A DNA stretch of 64,000 nt from Escherichia phage vB_EcoM-UFV10, in the sequence record OP555981.1; one strand, given 5' to 3'. Of this stretch, positions 11,564 to 31,002 are shown one piece after another; within the stretch, counting starts at the first letter, position 1, and each line of letters begins with the position of its first letter. A program made the position numbers and the translations under genes. The notes beneath the pieces were generated by a model, which ran no database searches, was not told the DNA's origin, and saw nothing but the letters and a program-made list of their open reading frames with translations.

Positions 11564-11685
11564 ATTTTTCTCACATCTTACGGACGGTTGACTACTATAC
11601 TATAACATTTTTACCTTAGCTTGTAAACAACTTTATGCAAAAATGCTTTAAAAATTTCATGGTATAATGAATCTAAGTCCTTCCA

Positions 11686-16215: not shown

Positions 16216-16416
16216 ATGGTACAAAAATTAATGGCACTTGTTAATGCCATCAAAGGTAATAAGAAACGTATAGCTTTTACTATTTCTGCTATGGTAGGAA
16301 TTTTACTCTGGAACTTTATTTTATCACCAATTGCAATTGCGCATGGTGTTAATATTCCAGTAGTTACTCTTGATACATTCGTAGATCTAGCATTTGCTTT
16401 AGTTGGGTTGATTTAA
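16216..16416 (+). CDS. putative small membrane protein on the opposite strand
   Basis: 66-aa ORF, AAGGAGG 4 nt before ATG, two hydrophobic segments; sits in the 56-61 intergenic region. Confidence 0.35.
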   Translation: MVQKLMALVNAIKGNKKRIAFTISAMVGILLWNFILSPIAIAHGVNIPVVTLDTFVDLAFALVGLI

Positions 16417-17441
16417 ATCTTAGCATATTTAGATAGCCGCATTTTAGCCATCAACCCCTGGGCAATATTATTTTTCATATATTCCATAATTTGTTCAGGG
16501 GTTGCACCTTCCTTTCTAATCATATCATTAACATCTTTAGATTTCCAGGGAGATTTATCCCAAAACATAACCCTTTCTCCTGCATCAACTAATTTAGTCA
16601 TTCGTTTGATAGTGTCAGGGTGACGAGGTTCATTATCTAAAACCCACACTCGTCTATCTTTAAATGGAACAATTTCTAGGTCTAATTGACCACCCGTAAT
16701 AGCTATACCATTTTCAATAAAAAGTGAATCTATAGGTCCTTCTAGAACATATACATCGCCATCTTTAACTCGTTCGACTCCATAGATTTTTGTTGCCTCA
16801 GGATAAGCTTTAATGGTGATATATTTTTGAGGAGCATTTTTCTTTAATGCACGCCCTTGAAACGACTCGGCTTTTCCGTTAGCATTATAAATTGGAATAA
16901 CAAGACGAGGCTCAGGTATTTCCTTTTTATATGTTCCCGGTGCTATGCTATTAACCAATTTAGGCCATTCGGTTGTAAACCAAAGATATTTCCATTTATC
17001 CTTTGGAATACAACGAGCTTTTACGTATTTTATAATTGGATGGTCTTCCGCCAGTTTATCTAATCTAACACATGACGGAAGAGATTTAATTATTTTCTTC
17101 TCAGGTTGTTTAGGAAGTTCTTTAGGTTTTTCTACTGGACGACTTTTACCTTTTTCTTTTCTTATTTCAAAGATATACTCACGATATAAATCAGGTTCAA
17201 ACTCCTTTAAATATATTCCGATTGGTGCGTGATAGTTACAGTTATAACAATGAATATTTCCTTCATTATTATCACCATAATACCATCCACGAGCTTTATT
17301 CTGGTCGGTTTTTGAATCTCCACAAACGGGGCATCTAAACCGCAATTTAAAAGTTGAACTATTATTTACTTGTGTGAATTTAGGTAAATGAGCCAATGCA
17401 CGATACGCAAACTCATTATCAATCCAAGGTATTGATGACAT
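16413..17441 (-). CDS. 61: DNA primase
   Basis: 342 aa, zinc-binding CPVCGDSKTDQNKARGWYY..., toprim region; matches T4 gp61 length and position. Confidence 0.9.
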   Translation of the reverse strand: MSSIPWIDNEFAYRALAHLPKFTQVNNSSTFKLRFRCPVCGDSKTDQNKARGWYYGDNNEGNIHCYNCNYHAPIGIYLKEFEPDLYREYIFEIRKEKGKSRPVEKPKELPKQPEKKIIKSLPSCVRLDKLAEDHPIIKYVKARCIPKDKWKYLWFTTEWPKLVNSIAPGTYKKEIPEPRLVIPIYNANGKAESFQGRALKKNAPQKYITIKAYPEATKIYGVERVKDGDVYVLEGPIDSLFIENGIAITGGQLDLEIVPFKDRRVWVLDNEPRHPDTIKRMTKLVDAGERVMFWDKSPWKSKDVNDMIRKEGATPEQIMEYMKNNIAQGLMAKMRLSKYAKI

Positions 17442-17443
17442 TT

Positions 17444-17608
17444 TTACTCTTCTTTTTCTTTAGATTCCTCTTTTTTCTTTTTAGGAATCTGTTCAGGACC
17501 TTTATTTACTACAGCACCTGATGTTGTTCCAGTAGAGATATTTTCAGGATTACCACCTGAATCTCCAGCAACCATATCTTCTTTAATAAATTCTTTATAT
17601 GTTTTCAT
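17444..17608 (-). CDS. small protein with capsid-targeting-sequence-like N-terminus
   Basis: 54-aa ORF read by hand: MKTYKEFIKEDMVAGDSGGNPENISTGTTSGAVVNKGPEQIPKKKKEESKEKEE; GAGGT SD; same MKTYKEFI start as 62759-63232 and 63249-63566. Confidence 0.5.
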   Translation of the reverse strand: MKTYKEFIKEDMVAGDSGGNPENISTGTTSGAVVNKGPEQIPKKKKEESKEKEE

Positions 17609-17652
17609 ATTAACCTCTATTCATAAAAGCATTAAAAATTTGGTCATCAATC
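17606..17652. repeat. 47-bp junction repeat, copy A
   Basis: CATATTAACCT(C/T)TATTCATAAAAGCATTAAAAATTTG...; 3 mismatches to copy B at 17964-18010. Confidence 0.8.
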
Positions 17653-17966
17653 GATGGAATAGCAACTTTTTCTGCATCATTTAGCAAATCATTAATTTCA
17701 TCAGATAGCATAACACATGTACCTTTATTTCCTGTAATTGTTACTGCACAATTACGAACGTTTTCTTTATTAAATTTTAGGTTAATATTTTCGTAATGAA
17801 AATCCTTTAATGCTGAATATATTTTTAAAATAAAATTGTCTTTTACTACAATAAACCCAACCTCACTATTAAAACGTGGTTCATGGAAACTGTAATAAAC
17901 CTTTTCATCTATAAAATCGTATGAAATTTTTTCCATTTTTAAATATGAAAATTCAGAACTATACAT
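17610..17966 (-). CDS. hypothetical protein
   Basis: 118-aa ORF; C-terminus SIDDQIFNAFMNRG shared with upstream ORF. Confidence 0.45.
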   Translation of the reverse strand: MYSSEFSYLKMEKISYDFIDEKVYYSFHEPRFNSEVGFIVVKDNFILKIYSALKDFHYENINLKFNKENVRNCAVTITGNKGTCVMLSDEINDLLNDAEKVAIPSIDDQIFNAFMNRG

Positions 17967-18010
17967 ATTAACCTTTATTCATAAAAGCATTAAAAATTTG
18001 ATCGTCAATA
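17964..18010. repeat. 47-bp junction repeat, copy B
   Basis: near-identical to 17606-17652; covers C-terminal codons, stop, SD and next start. Confidence 0.8.
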
Positions 18011-18600
18011 GAAACTTTTACTTTAGGATGTTCTTCAAACGGTAATTCATATCCACATATTACAATTTTGTGATCGATACCAAAATACACAGAAGCAATA
18101 TGATTAATATTATTTTCAGTGAAATCTAAATCAACATCAATATCTTTTTGACTAACGCTCAAAGGATAATTAATACGAATAATTCGATTATCTTTAACAA
18201 AGATTCCACCGACATACTCTGTGTTGCGTTTAAAGTTTACACGTTTCCTAAATGAAAAATATTCAGGTTCTTTATGAGCCCGACTCATAGGACACAATGA
18301 GTAGCTAGAATAAGAGATGTCAAATCCTACACCTTCAATATGAGCCAACGTGTCATGATTAAACCAATTATAATCATACGCCAAATCCATTATATTGTAA
18401 TATGTGAAAGGCACCGGATTAACATCATATATTGTACCTTTAAAATCTGCCCAGGCAACGATTTCATTATCTTTAACAATTACAAAAATTGTGCCAATAA
18501 GATATCCACGGTTATTTTCATCAGGCGTTATATTATAACATTGTGCATCAGGAAATTTACCGTATTTAAACGGTGGATTTTTGTGCATATAATAAATCAT
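17968..18600 (-). CDS. hypothetical protein
   Basis: 210 aa from ATG (track start is GTG); C-terminus SIDDQIFNAFMNKG. Confidence 0.45.
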   Translation of the reverse strand: MIYYMHKNPPFKYGKFPDAQCYNITPDENNRGYLIGTIFVIVKDNEIVAWADFKGTIYDVNPVPFTYYNIMDLAYDYNWFNHDTLAHIEGVGFDISYSSYSLCPMSRAHKEPEYFSFRKRVNFKRNTEYVGGIFVKDNRIIRINYPLSVSQKDIDVDLDFTENNINHIASVYFGIDHKIVICGYELPFEEHPKVKVSIDDQIFNAFMNKG

Positions 18601-18601
18601 A

Positions 18602-18895
18602 TTATTCACCTGTGATTTCGGTTACGATATCTTTGTTATCAAAATTAGGGTCACAATACAAAACATAGTTATACTGCATCACACCACCTGATTTAAGCTG
18701 TTTTTGTACTTCAACTTTCATATTGGGACGATCACGCTCAACGATATTCATAATATCCGCTTCAATTTGAGTTTCAACTTCAGTCTGATCTGCAGTCATA
18801 GACCATTCACACAAATCTTTATCATAACCTGCCATAGCAGGCTGAGCAGCACAAGAAGCTAAAGCAAAAATTGCAGCAAAGATAAATTTTTTCAT
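18602..18895 (-). CDS. sp: periplasmic spackle-like protein
   Basis: 97 aa with signal peptide MKKFIFAAIFALASCAAQPAMA; size and position match T4 Sp. Confidence 0.65.
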   Translation of the reverse strand: MKKFIFAAIFALASCAAQPAMAGYDKDLCEWSMTADQTEVETQIEADIMNIVERDRPNMKVEVQKQLKSGGVMQYNYVLYCDPNFDNKDIVTEITGE

Positions 18896-18955: not shown

Positions 18956-19213
18956 CTATTTTAAAACTTCTGCATAATCACATGTTACAAACTGTTTCTC
19001 TAACTTGACGATTTTACGAAAATACCTTTTACACTGACGAATCTGTCGCTTCGTAGGACGTACAGCAAACTTAATAAATTCCACTCGACCAAATGGAGGA
19101 CTTTCTTCTGCTGGAATATCTAGCACCAATTCCCACGTATCTGCAATAAGTGCTTTGAATTGCGTATTTTTCCTGACGTTATACGGAGTAGGTTTAAATA
19201 AAACAATATGCAT
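18956..19213 (-). CDS. hypothetical protein
   Basis: 85 aa from ATG behind GAGGATAAT; track start is TTG. Confidence 0.4.
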   Translation of the reverse strand: MHIVLFKPTPYNVRKNTQFKALIADTWELVLDIPAEESPPFGRVEFIKFAVRPTKRQIRQCKRYFRKIVKLEKQFVTCDYAEVLK

Positions 19214-19214
19214 A

Positions 19215-19397
19215 TTATCCTCGGCAATCCACTTCGCACACTTTCTTGTCATCAATGAAAGCTTCAACTAATGCTTTATTAACTTCAGCATATTGAGTAG
19301 TAGCCCATTGAACGTCATCTTTCATCATTGTGGTTTCTTTAGTAAACATGCTTTCATTCTTAAACCACCCCATAAAAACTACCTTTACCAATTCCAT
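19215..19397 (-). CDS. dmd: Dmd, antitoxin against host RnlA/LsoA endoribonucleases
   Basis: 60 aa, MELVKVVFMGWFKNESMFTKE...DDKKVCEVDCRG matches T4 Dmd as remembered. Confidence 0.85.
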   Translation of the reverse strand: MELVKVVFMGWFKNESMFTKETTMMKDDVQWATTQYAEVNKALVEAFIDDKKVCEVDCRG

Positions 19398-19426: not shown

Positions 19427-19456
19427 ACTATACCATAGTCTTGTCAGCTTGTAAAC
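19427..19456 (-). promoter_or_regulatory. early promoter for dmd
   Basis: minus strand GTTTAC-18bp-TATAGT with extended TGG; -35 overlaps the gene 41 stop. Confidence 0.45.
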
Positions 19457-20883
19457 TAAAATTTTAATTCATTTGCCAAAGCATCTAACTGAGCTCGAGC
19501 TGATTCGTTTCTTTGATAGCGATTCTGTTCAGCCTGAATCTGCTGTGAACCTGCTACTTCACTCACTTCGGTTGGAGTAGAATCTTGTTCAATTTCTACC
19601 CATTTTTGATTTCCTTTTTGAACACCCATCAAAAACTTATTCCACTTATTCTTATCACCATATCGTGATTTGATTTGCTTAATGAGTTGTTGTTCAGCAG
19701 CTGCTAGCTCCTCGGTTTCAATGACCGCAAGCATAAAATCAGCTGTTGCTGGAAGACCAGCAGATTCTGCAATATCGCTCATGTTAACATCGGAAGAGTC
19801 CCAAGCTTGTTTACCGACCTGTGCTGCAGTCCAAAGAACAGTTTCTGTTTCAACAGCCAGAGCACGTAATTCCTCTGCAATAGCTTTAACAGTGGTGTAA
19901 CTATTTTCTGAATAAACTCTAATGCGGCAAGATTTACAAATACCTAGATAGTCGACAATAATGATTGTTGGAACAAAATTCTTTTTGAGCTTCAATTCAT
20001 TCAAGAGAGACCTGAATGTGTTAGCGTCTGCTCCACCAGTAGGATATTGCTTAACGATTAAACGACCGAGAGTAGATTTCTCACGCCATTTTTCCATTTT
20101 TCCTTTATACTCGGCATAAGAAATATGTCCATCATCAATATCGTCAAGAGAAACATCGAGCATGTTAGCATCAATACGTTTAGCACAGACTTCTTCTGCC
20201 ATTTCCATGGAGATATAAAGAACGTTATGACCAAGCTGCAAATAATCTGCTGCTAATGAACAAAGTCCTAATGATTTACCAACGTTAACGCCAGCCATTA
20301 AAACGTTCAGTGTTCCAGTCTCAGCTCCGCCTTTAGTAATTTTGTTTAGAATTCTGAGTTTAAATGGAACCTTACGAGCTTTATTCATATAAGATAGCCA
20401 ACGCGCTTCATAGTCATCCATCCAATCATGACCAACGTAGCTATCAAATGAAATTGATAATGCTTGGCGCATGATGTCAGGAATAGCACCTACATCTGGC
20501 ATTTTCTTATTTCGTTTTTCCGGAGGAAGCTCAGCATTAGTTTGAATTTCAATTATTTTAGATGTGGCGTTAAACATCGCCCTTTGCTGAACATATTTTT
20601 CTGTTTCTTTTACTAACCAGCTATGGTCTTCCGGAGAATCGGCCAGTTTTGAAATAAGTGTTTTTACACCAGAATATTCTGTTTCAGTAAATGAACTATT
20701 TTCTAATGCAACATTTAACGCATTAATAGATGGAACGTTATGGTATTCATTAACATGAGATTTAATTAATTTGAATGTATTTTTAGCTGGACCACTTTCA
20801 AAATATTCTGAATCCATATATGGCCAAACTTTTGAAAAATAAGCTTGATCAAATATGAGATGAGAAAGAATAATTTCTACCAC
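19456..20883 (-). CDS. 41: replicative DNA helicase (DnaB-like)
   Basis: 475 aa, MVEIILSHLIFDQAYF..., Walker A GVNVGKS; first codon reads GTG behind AAGGAG. Confidence 0.9.
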   Translation of the reverse strand: MVEIILSHLIFDQAYFSKVWPYMDSEYFESGPAKNTFKLIKSHVNEYHNVPSINALNVALENSSFTETEYSGVKTLISKLADSPEDHSWLVKETEKYVQQRAMFNATSKIIEIQTNAELPPEKRNKKMPDVGAIPDIMRQALSISFDSYVGHDWMDDYEARWLSYMNKARKVPFKLRILNKITKGGAETGTLNVLMAGVNVGKSLGLCSLAADYLQLGHNVLYISMEMAEEVCAKRIDANMLDVSLDDIDDGHISYAEYKGKMEKWREKSTLGRLIVKQYPTGGADANTFRSLLNELKLKKNFVPTIIIVDYLGICKSCRIRVYSENSYTTVKAIAEELRALAVETETVLWTAAQVGKQAWDSSDVNMSDIAESAGLPATADFMLAVIETEELAAAEQQLIKQIKSRYGDKNKWNKFLMGVQKGNQKWVEIEQDSTPTEVSEVAGSQQIQAEQNRYQRNESARAQLDALANELKF

Positions 20884-24075: not shown

Positions 24076-24225
24076 TCAATTGATGCATTCATATTTAATT
24101 TGTAACAGTAATAAACCCCAACCTATAATAAGTGTCGGAATCATACAAGGAACCGTTACGCTATAGTATATACTTATTATAATCATCAAGATTAAAAGCA
24201 ATACTGCTAAAATTTTGCTTTTCAT
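24076..24225 (-). CDS. small membrane peptide (imm.1-like)
   Basis: 49-aa hydrophobic ORF read by hand (MKSKILAVLLLILMIIISIYY...); ATGA overlap with imm stop. Confidence 0.35.
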   Translation of the reverse strand: MKSKILAVLLLILMIIISIYYSVTVPCMIPTLIIGWGLLLLQIKYECIN

Positions 24226-30947: not shown

Positions 30948-31002
30948 GTAATTTCCTTCAATTCAAATGAGATTTAATTTTATAACTAATTTAATAAAGC
31001 AA

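Follow-up and report, generated by a model that had tools for sequence, protein, structure and literature searches.

The window, by which we mean the whole 64-kb stretch of phage DNA analysed here, is that of a Tequatrovirus (T4-like phage). The locus under study is 100% identical to that of Escherichia phage vB_EcoM-UFV09 and about 97% identical to those of AR1, wV7 and RB51, all members of Tequatrovirus. Its genes lie on the minus strand in the order 41-dmd-61.4-sp-61.2-ORF-61.1-61. The gene 41 helicase (19456-20883), dmd (19215-19397), 61.4 or tifA (18956-19267) and sp (18602-18895) are followed by adfA (17968-18600), the T4 gene 61.2 encoding anti-DarT factor A, a protein of 210 aa recognized by Pfam PF23813 (E = 1.5e-136). 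The next open reading frame (17610-17966) encodes a 118-aa half-length adfA paralog of the RB32ORF033c type (phrog_4122). Gene 61.1 (17444-17608, 54 aa), in which the start site of the promoter P61 lies 8 nt inside the gene, and the gene 61 DNA primase (16413-17441), the gene served by P61, complete the series. This locus has been named a possible anti-TA island of T-even phages comprising dmd, tifA/61.4 and adfA/61.2, and its neighbouring genes were termed 'attractive anti-toxin candidates' (Srikant et al. 2022, PMC9391042). The proposed island contains the repeat described below.

A repeat search of the window reported a single family of direct repeats at this locus, made of two copies of 49 nt at 17606-17654 (copy 1, downstream) and 17964-18012 (copy 2, upstream) that are identical at 45 of 49 positions and spaced by 358 nt. 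Read on the minus strand, each copy consists of 14 codons (S I D D Q I F N A F M N R/K G), TAA, a single T and the ATG of the next gene. Copy 1 holds the last 14 codons of the 118-aa gene and the start of 61.1, and copy 2 the last 14 codons of adfA and the start of the 118-aa gene. The 47-bp near-identical direct repeat reported in a preliminary description of this DNA is thereby borne out, as is its reading of each copy as the last codons of a gene, a stop, a Shine-Dalgarno-like sequence (AGAGG/AAAGG) and the next start. Its figure of about three mismatches becomes four within the 47-nt span (17617, 17643, 17646 and 17652). The gene sizes that it gave, 118 and 210 aa, are right, the latter being counted from the ATG used in relatives; an upstream GTG start would make the adfA open reading frame 213 aa long. 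The 37-nt core of the repeat, CAAATTTTTAATGCTTTTATGAATARAGGTTAATATG, occurs exactly twice in the 64-kb window. Nucleotide identity between adfA and the 118-aa gene is 44% in the aligned bodies vs 90% in the tail.

AdfA, its half-length paralog and their common C-terminus

The 210-aa gene product is a full-length member of the family described as AdfA or T4 gp61.2 (PF23813, LeRoux lab, PMC11825919): it scores 452.9 bits over profile positions 1-211 and has the two-domain architecture of about 210 aa. AdfA was reported to bind and neutralise the toxin DarT1, with a specificity residue at position 164 that is R in RB69 and H in active AdfA variants (PMC11825919). At the position equivalent to RB69 R164 (NNINRIAS), the AdfA of the window carries H (NNINHIAS), and the short paralog aligns an N where AdfA has this specificity residue H/R.

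In comparison with AdfA, the 118-aa protein is devoid of the N-terminal half. It matches PF23813 at positions 113-211 of 211 with 34.4 bits, above the curated gathering cutoff of 27 bits, and thus corresponds to the C-terminal half only, without the two-domain architecture of about 210 aa. About half of this score is contributed by the tail. Collinear PHROG cross-hits link phrog_4122 and phrog_3781 (E = 5e-7 and 1.3e-10). Once the tail is removed, hhalign aligns positions 4-49 of the short protein with 98-143 of AdfA (P = 0.0026) and, among more divergent members, positions 20-76 with 110-171 (P = 0.001, 33% identity over 57 columns), the latter alignment leaving equal distances to both C-termini. 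Tail-less BLASTP of the short protein against AdfA is weak; the bodies of the two proteins are about 34% identical. By these comparisons, the 118-aa protein is a paralog of the C-terminal half of AdfA. Hence the two 'otherwise different proteins' of the preliminary description do share the C-terminal tail that it had noticed, but are paralogs according to Pfam, the PHROG cross-hits and the tail-less hhalign alignments. The gene is the same as RB32ORF033c or ar1_036 (phrog_4122, hypothetical protein 'similar to gp61.2'), and in RB51 too the short gene is annotated 'similar to gp61.2'. The RB32ORF033c annotation is silent on function, tail and promoter.

The AdfA family is narrow: an exhaustive HMMER profile search of 1.84 billion representatives recovered one full-length cluster at 50% identity plus fragments, which makes a deep alignment impossible, and word-indexed searches returned close relatives and no distant ones. 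Since IMG/VR yielded only six AdfA loci, the comparative work was built on INPHARED records and pattern scans. No relative of AdfA was found by sequence in the PDB, and its AF2 model, of moderate confidence (pLDDT 70.5), had no PDB neighbour by Foldseek (best E = 0.15). The AF2 model of the short protein (pLDDT 57.9) was too poor for fold comparison and was dropped as evidence of paralogy.

The tail peptide does not vary among AdfA proteins as distant as 60% identity, nor in any short homolog. Mosigvirus, Dhakavirus, Gaprivervirus and a Yersinia phage retain it although synonymous sites have changed: across genera, CAA/CAG, ATT/ATA, GCT/GCC/GCA, TTT/TTC and AGA/CGA alternate with DDQIFNAFM unchanged, and the stop codon of the tail gene is TAA, TAG or TGA. 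A third type of protein ending with the tail, of about 145 aa (phrog_8539), was encountered in Dhakavirus and Gaprivervirus; in phages such as UPEC07 and vB_YenM_P8, genes for a 145-aa and a 116-119-aa protein lie in tandem, each of the two closing with the tail. Deprived of the tail, the 145-aa family shows no significant similarity to AdfA or to the short family (P = 0.12 and 0.15), and homology of its body to AdfA is consequently not claimed. A back-translated pattern scan of viral and metagenome contigs recovered no body types other than these three, and each locus lay between sp and 61. The scan is biased towards the exact peptide, loci L020-L047 having been retrieved by a pattern that requires it; loci obtained by whole-protein or blastn similarity, which are free of this bias, show the same conservation of the peptide. 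L042, considered as a tail-only remnant, was rejected as such and is a frameshifted short gene.

In the AdfA model, the tail forms a terminal helix (residues 198-206) that follows a linker of lower confidence, and the shared peptide is thus predicted to be the invariant C-terminal helix of the AdfA family, SIDDQIFNAFMN(R/K)G. Selection on this peptide appears to be the primary constraint on the repeat, since the other T-even genera keep the peptide while synonymous sites change and the promoter described below breaks. From this conservation, we infer that the peptide has a function. A clamp-binding or PIP-box reading of QIFNAF was abandoned, the sequence showing no fit to those consensus motifs. 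We found no discussion of the shared C-terminal tail in the AdfA literature that could be searched.

A middle promoter inside the coding tail

The consensus of T4 middle promoters, which depend on sigma appropriation by MotA and AsiA, is a MotA box wwwTGCTTtA centred near -30, a spacer of 12 +/- 1 bp and TAtaaT (Hinton 2010, PMC2988021). P61, with its T4 start site at 19122, is listed in Table 1 of that review, which cites Marshall, Sharma and Hinton (1999). T4 position 19122 is the A that follows ATGAAAAC in gene 61.1; TAATAT stands at -12 to -7 and the MotA box TAATGCTTTT lies 12 bp upstream of TAATAT. The -10 element of T4 P61 is composed of the stop TAA of gp61.2, the single T after it and the first two letters of the 61.1 ATG. 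The same reading of the coordinates fits an independent promoter, Pdam, at 17617 of T4.

In copy 1 of the window, the MotA box TAATGCTTTT occupies 17625-17634, the 12-bp spacer 17613-17624 and the -10 TAATAT 17607-17612, all on the minus strand, and the T4 coordinate would place the start site at 17600. From the first tail codon to the mapped start, this copy is the same as T4 except for TCG/TCT in the first codon. Copy 2 presents the same elements on the same strand: box at 17983-17992, spacer at 17971-17982 with A instead of G at 17975, TAATAT at 17965-17970 and, by extension from copy 1, a predicted start near 17958. In both copies the box agrees with the consensus at 9 of 10 positions, the last base being T for A, and the -10 (TAnnnT) follows after exactly 12 bp; none of the four differences between the copies touches the MotA box or the -10. 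The window contains 17 occurrences of the pattern TGCTT-N14-TANNNT, which both copies match, where 5.45 would be expected; most of them are on the minus strand. Some of the promoter match is automatic, because any TAA-N-ATG junction provides a TAnnnT hexamer. A sigma-70 promoter scan gave no site at either tail, as expected for a promoter without a -35. The genes for MotA and AsiA lie outside the window and were read from UFV09, 100% identical at the locus, where they are annotated 'transcriptional regulator of middle promoters' (211 aa) and 'anti-sigma factor' (90 aa).

By its position and sequence, the 37-nt core of copy 1 thus appears to be the MotA/AsiA-dependent T4 middle promoter P61: it lies at the same place before 61.1, and its box, its -10 and the 12 bp between them agree with the published consensus. 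Because P61 starts 8 nt inside 61.1, its transcripts cannot encode 61.1, and the promoter would serve the primase gene 61. Compared with T4, the window has a second copy: copy 2 reads as another P61-like element, 358 bp upstream of the P61 at the usual place, and may be an active promoter. The putative transcripts of copy 2 would begin after the ATG of the short gene.

The core preceding 61.1 is invariant in 18 Tequatrovirus genomes, whether adfA or the short gene stands upstream. Mosigvirus reads TGCATTT, and Dhakavirus and Gaprivervirus TGCCTT, TTC and a stop TGA or TAG, so that the box and sometimes the -10 are broken; in these genera the downstream gene also differs. As the box, and sometimes the -10, is broken in other genera with the peptide kept, the promoter seems to be a Tequatrovirus overlay on an older peptide constraint. 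That P61 is embedded in the conserved codons for the C-terminus of AdfA and takes its -10 from the stop/start junction is our own reading of the sequence; no such statement was found in the P61 and AdfA literature covered.

Gene arrangements among T-even phages

Whether relatives carry one or two copies of the repeat was a point raised by the preliminary description, and both states occur, in three arrangements: sp-adfA-61.1 in T4, sp-adfA-short-61.1 in the window, RB51, Sf21 and slur04, and sp-short-61.1 in T2 and pSs-1. The tail is present at 907 places in 709 records, giving about 198 genomes with two copies, and full-length adfA in 486 records, 113 others having the short form only, these counts of arrangements being subtracted BLAST totals that include duplicate RefSeq/GenBank records. 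The body of the short gene was found in 298 phage records, and in 289 of these the identity was >=95%.

Comparison of the window with Sf21 reveals 96-100% identity in adfA and in all sequence downstream of copy 1, but 72-90% in the short gene body. Mismatches are concentrated between the repeat cores (62 of 324 positions vs 38 of 1130 in the flanks, P = 6e-19) and are dense only from 17963 to 17643. Sf21 thus appears to carry a replaced allele of the short gene, bounded by the two repeat copies. The alignment of T4 with slur04 contains one gap, a single 358-nt unit long; the one tail of T4 and both slur04 copies share the 39 nt TCTATTGATGACCAAATTTTTAATGCTTTTATGAATAGAG without a difference. In phages that have the short gene without adfA, its ATG is preceded by the 14 nt TAGAGGTTAGTATG, which agree with the tail junction at 13 of 14 positions and look like a remnant of a lost upstream gene. 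A deletion model based on TGAATA microhomology was set aside for this short-only arrangement, as it did not exactly reproduce the observed junction.

The Sf21 and slur04 patterns fit recombination of one copy with the other, or exchange with a donor for which the copies serve as arms, and we infer such a mechanism at the repeat. Conserved tails would in any case hide nearby breakpoints even if recombination struck anywhere. The DD codons of T4 (GAT GAC) match the tail of the short gene of the window and not that of its adfA; T4 therefore does not simply derive from a window-like ancestor, and either gain or loss of the short gene among relatives would fit. The 'recombination-generated modular boundary' of the preliminary description accordingly has two parts that fared differently: relatives have the short gene, lack it or carry a replaced version, and the breakpoints fall at the repeat, as befits a modular boundary, but the identity of the DNA itself needs no recent recombination (P = 0.12, see below).

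Recombination in the laboratory is known to reshape the anti-TA island locus by amplification and deletion (PMC9391042). Those experimental events involved homologies of 2-10 bp around dmd-tifA, unlike the 49-nt tails of the window. A closer likeness is offered by PeSLs, short repeated promoter-containing sequences flanking non-essential genes of T4-type phages, which were proposed as recombination sites that shuffle, delete and replace the genes they flank (Arbiol et al. 2010, PMC2839356; PMC4122927). The repeat of the window also bounds a gene that is lost, gained or replaced. However, PeSLs are intergenic and comprise a strong sigma-70 early promoter and a terminator stem-loop, whereas the present repeat lies inside coding sequence and contains a middle (MotA) promoter without a -35, the promoter scan having given no strong sigma-70 early site, and it has no stem-loop.

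Origin and maintenance of the repeat

We consider it probable that the repeat represents the 3' ends of tandem AdfA-family paralogs and acts in addition as promoter, gene junction and recombination arms. The 49-nt stretch would carry overlapping functions, namely the code for a helix, a promoter and a Shine-Dalgarno/stop/start junction, and its near-identity would be held mainly by selection on the peptide, to which promoter constraint on the DNA or occasional homogenisation would be added within Tequatrovirus. Since no other highly conserved DNA flanks the divergent gene body, the two copies could furnish homology arms for recombination, which would explain why T-even phages lose, gain or replace the short gene as a cassette.

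Chance similarity in AT-rich low-complexity DNA, which the preliminary description had itself named as what would undo its claim, is a negligible alternative: the region is indeed AT-rich with short A and T runs, but no match to the 37-nt core was found in 100 dinucleotide-preserving shuffles with up to three mismatches allowed, and 709 phage records have the same sequence at the corresponding gene ends. The repeat could also be the footprint of a recent partial tandem duplication or gene conversion, with nothing functional maintaining it, an account that we regard as improbable. It would agree with a repeat running exactly through the stop to the ATG and no further, like a duplication junction, and with the two tail copies of slur04, which differ at 1 of 45 positions. 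Tails are also somewhat more alike within a genome (one to four core differences between paralogs, median one) than within the short family across genera (three to five), which hints at concerted evolution, though this likeness is confounded by base composition. Codon identity is moreover higher in the tail (9/12) than in the aligned bodies (11/31, P = 0.023), a comparison that suggests a modest extra signal at the nucleotide level. Nevertheless, bodies with about 34% protein and 44% DNA identity indicate an old duplication, the short family with its tail already exists in Gaprivervirus-type phages, and retention of the peptide across genera with many synonymous changes is a signature of purifying selection. 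Among identical residues, the 9 of 12 degenerate codons that match compare with 6.5 expected from phage codon usage (P = 0.12). Tail codon identity is thus within the expectation from codon bias, so that a constraint at the DNA level appears weakly supported and the identity seems explicable without recent recombination.

Quite unlikely in our view is an element that is essentially DNA, namely P61, in which the peptide is conserved only as the promoter falls in a reading frame. Within Tequatrovirus, the last 10 codons, which cover box, spacer and -10, indeed show no synonymous change, in contrast to the variable S, D and D codons upstream of the box, and the core adjoining 61.1 is invariant whichever gene body lies upstream; yet Mosigvirus, Dhakavirus and Gaprivervirus, which break the box and sometimes the -10, leave DDQIFNAFM unchanged. 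A dedicated translational-coupling or RNA-structure cassette handing ribosomes from gene to gene, in line with the 'conserved coupling cassette' of the preliminary description, is very unlikely. The features of a coupled junction are present at the level of sequence: a single nucleotide separates stop and start, and AGAGG/AAAGG stands 5 nt upstream of the ATG, inside the upstream gene. The final two codons track the downstream gene as well, reading AGAGGT where 61.1 follows and AAAGGT or AGAGAT where the short gene follows; this variation may tune Shine-Dalgarno strength or simply reflect linkage. The 'identical junction' through which translation was said to be handed over does exist as TAA-T-ATG, but it is generic, with 24 TAATATG on this strand of the window, one of them at the sp/adfA junction. 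Coupling would need only about 13 of the 49 nt, and the junction RNA of the two copies folded with no extra stability over shuffles (z = -0.40 and +1.53), an Rfam search of the junctions gave no match at E <= 1 and a terminator scan found none at either copy.

The components of the explanation that we favour, tandem paralogs with a mapped promoter and recombination between direct repeats, are known; what is modestly new, and testable, is the way they combine, along with the widespread half-length paralog. About 300 sequenced T-even phages have, as a separate and little studied gene, the half of AdfA that bears the specificity residue; some of them, such as T2 and pSs-1, lack adfA. This has a bearing on a published puzzle, namely that presence and type of adfA do not predict sensitivity to DarTG1. 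A single 37-nt stretch that is at once conserved peptide, promoter, stop and start limits the evolution of this anti-defence locus, and its two copies suggest a concrete, testable way in which cassettes of the proposed anti-TA island could be gained, lost and replaced.

At least three protein types, one of them with a 145-aa body that has no significant similarity to AdfA, are encoded downstream of sp and end with the same helix. It is conceivable, although we hold it as rather doubtful, that this helix is a portable docking peptide tethering AdfA, the 116-119-aa and the approximately 145-aa forms to one common partner. If so, the partner would be a DarT-family toxin or a protein of the replication fork, and the variable bodies would set specificity. 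Because the DNA of the tail is also promoter and recombination arm, T-even phages could then swap cassettes of anti-toxin specificity with primase expression undisturbed, and the short paralog would be a second anti-toxin directed against a different target.

Variants of the shared tail

The tail shared by AdfA and its half-length paralog also terminates the phrog_8539 protein of about 145 aa, which is found in Dhakavirus, Gaprivervirus and a Yersinia phage and whose body showed no significant similarity to AdfA. Some of these genomes carry the gene in tandem with a short-form gene of 116-119 aa, both products ending in the tail (145-aa and tandem loci of related phages: L015 1205-1645; L016 1204-1641; L017 793-1281 and 1283-1642; L018 1157-1645 and 1647-1997). 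Such a pair resembles an AdfA divided into two parts, each with its own tail.

The last residue of the tail varies. Some adfA alleles, among them that of slur04 (L014 1291-1293), end in ...NRD and not in ...NRG through a GGT to GAT change (proteins P0014 and P0019), which also weakens the AGAGG Shine-Dalgarno sequence preceding the short gene. In Gaprivervirus, the 145-aa genes have the same kind of ending, ...KRD, where another gene comes next.

Short-only phages and two irregular loci

In short-only phages, the ATG of the short gene follows a 14-nt stretch (TAGAGGTTAGTATG) that shares 13 of its 14 bases with the tail junction TAGAGGTTAATATG (L009 1561-1575; also locus L010, from T2, and locus L031). 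This stretch is apparently the remnant of an upstream family member that has since been deleted. Two other loci depart from the usual arrangement. In the metagenome contig UMED01024097.1 (L042) the short gene is frameshifted inside an A run, reflecting either a pseudogene or an assembly error. In the Mosigvirus-type locus NFYZ01007209.1 (L036) adfA is followed by a largely deleted 65-aa gene, of which only the last residues are left after the adfA stop.

Candidate promoters and neighbouring genes

The pattern TGCTT-N14-TANNNT, which corresponds to the box and -10 element of MotA-dependent middle promoters, occurs 17 times in the whole window against 5.45 expected, with 12 of the 17 sites on the minus strand. 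These sites, for instance 24176-24200(-), 30977-31001(-) and 11644-11668(+), are likely candidates for further promoters of this class.

On the primase side of the locus, a hydrophobic ORF of 66 aa (16216-16416, plus strand) lies on the strand opposite to gene 61 and overlaps its 3' end by 4 nt. It is kept and annotated in relatives (RB32ORF030w, RB69ORF029w), and in Sf21 it is labelled 'predicted membrane protein'. On the other side, dmd and the homolog of 61.4/TifA adjoin the repeat locus (18956-19397, minus strand). The 61.4 product matches Pfam DUF7279 (E = 2e-20); mechanical ORF calling gives it 103 aa from a TTG start overlapping dmd, versus 85 aa annotated in relatives. TifA of T4 is reported to inhibit the ToxN toxin; together with adfA and dmd, the latter an anti-RnlA gene, it makes up a proposed 'anti-TA island' (PMC9391042).

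Start and 5' half of adfA

The mechanical adfA ORF begins at a GTG, encodes 213 aa and overlaps the end of sp (18598-18609); the annotation of relatives places an ATG at 18600, 1 nt past the sp stop, for a product of 210 aa. With this ATG, the sp/adfA boundary forms one more TAA-T-ATG junction. Identity to T4 and slur04 falls to 48-84% in the region 18400-18750, covering the 3' end of sp and the 5' half of adfA, compared with 90-100% in its flanks, and the first ~90 nt of adfA are almost the same as in Mosigvirus APCEc01. Such a pattern suggests that genera have exchanged alleles here.
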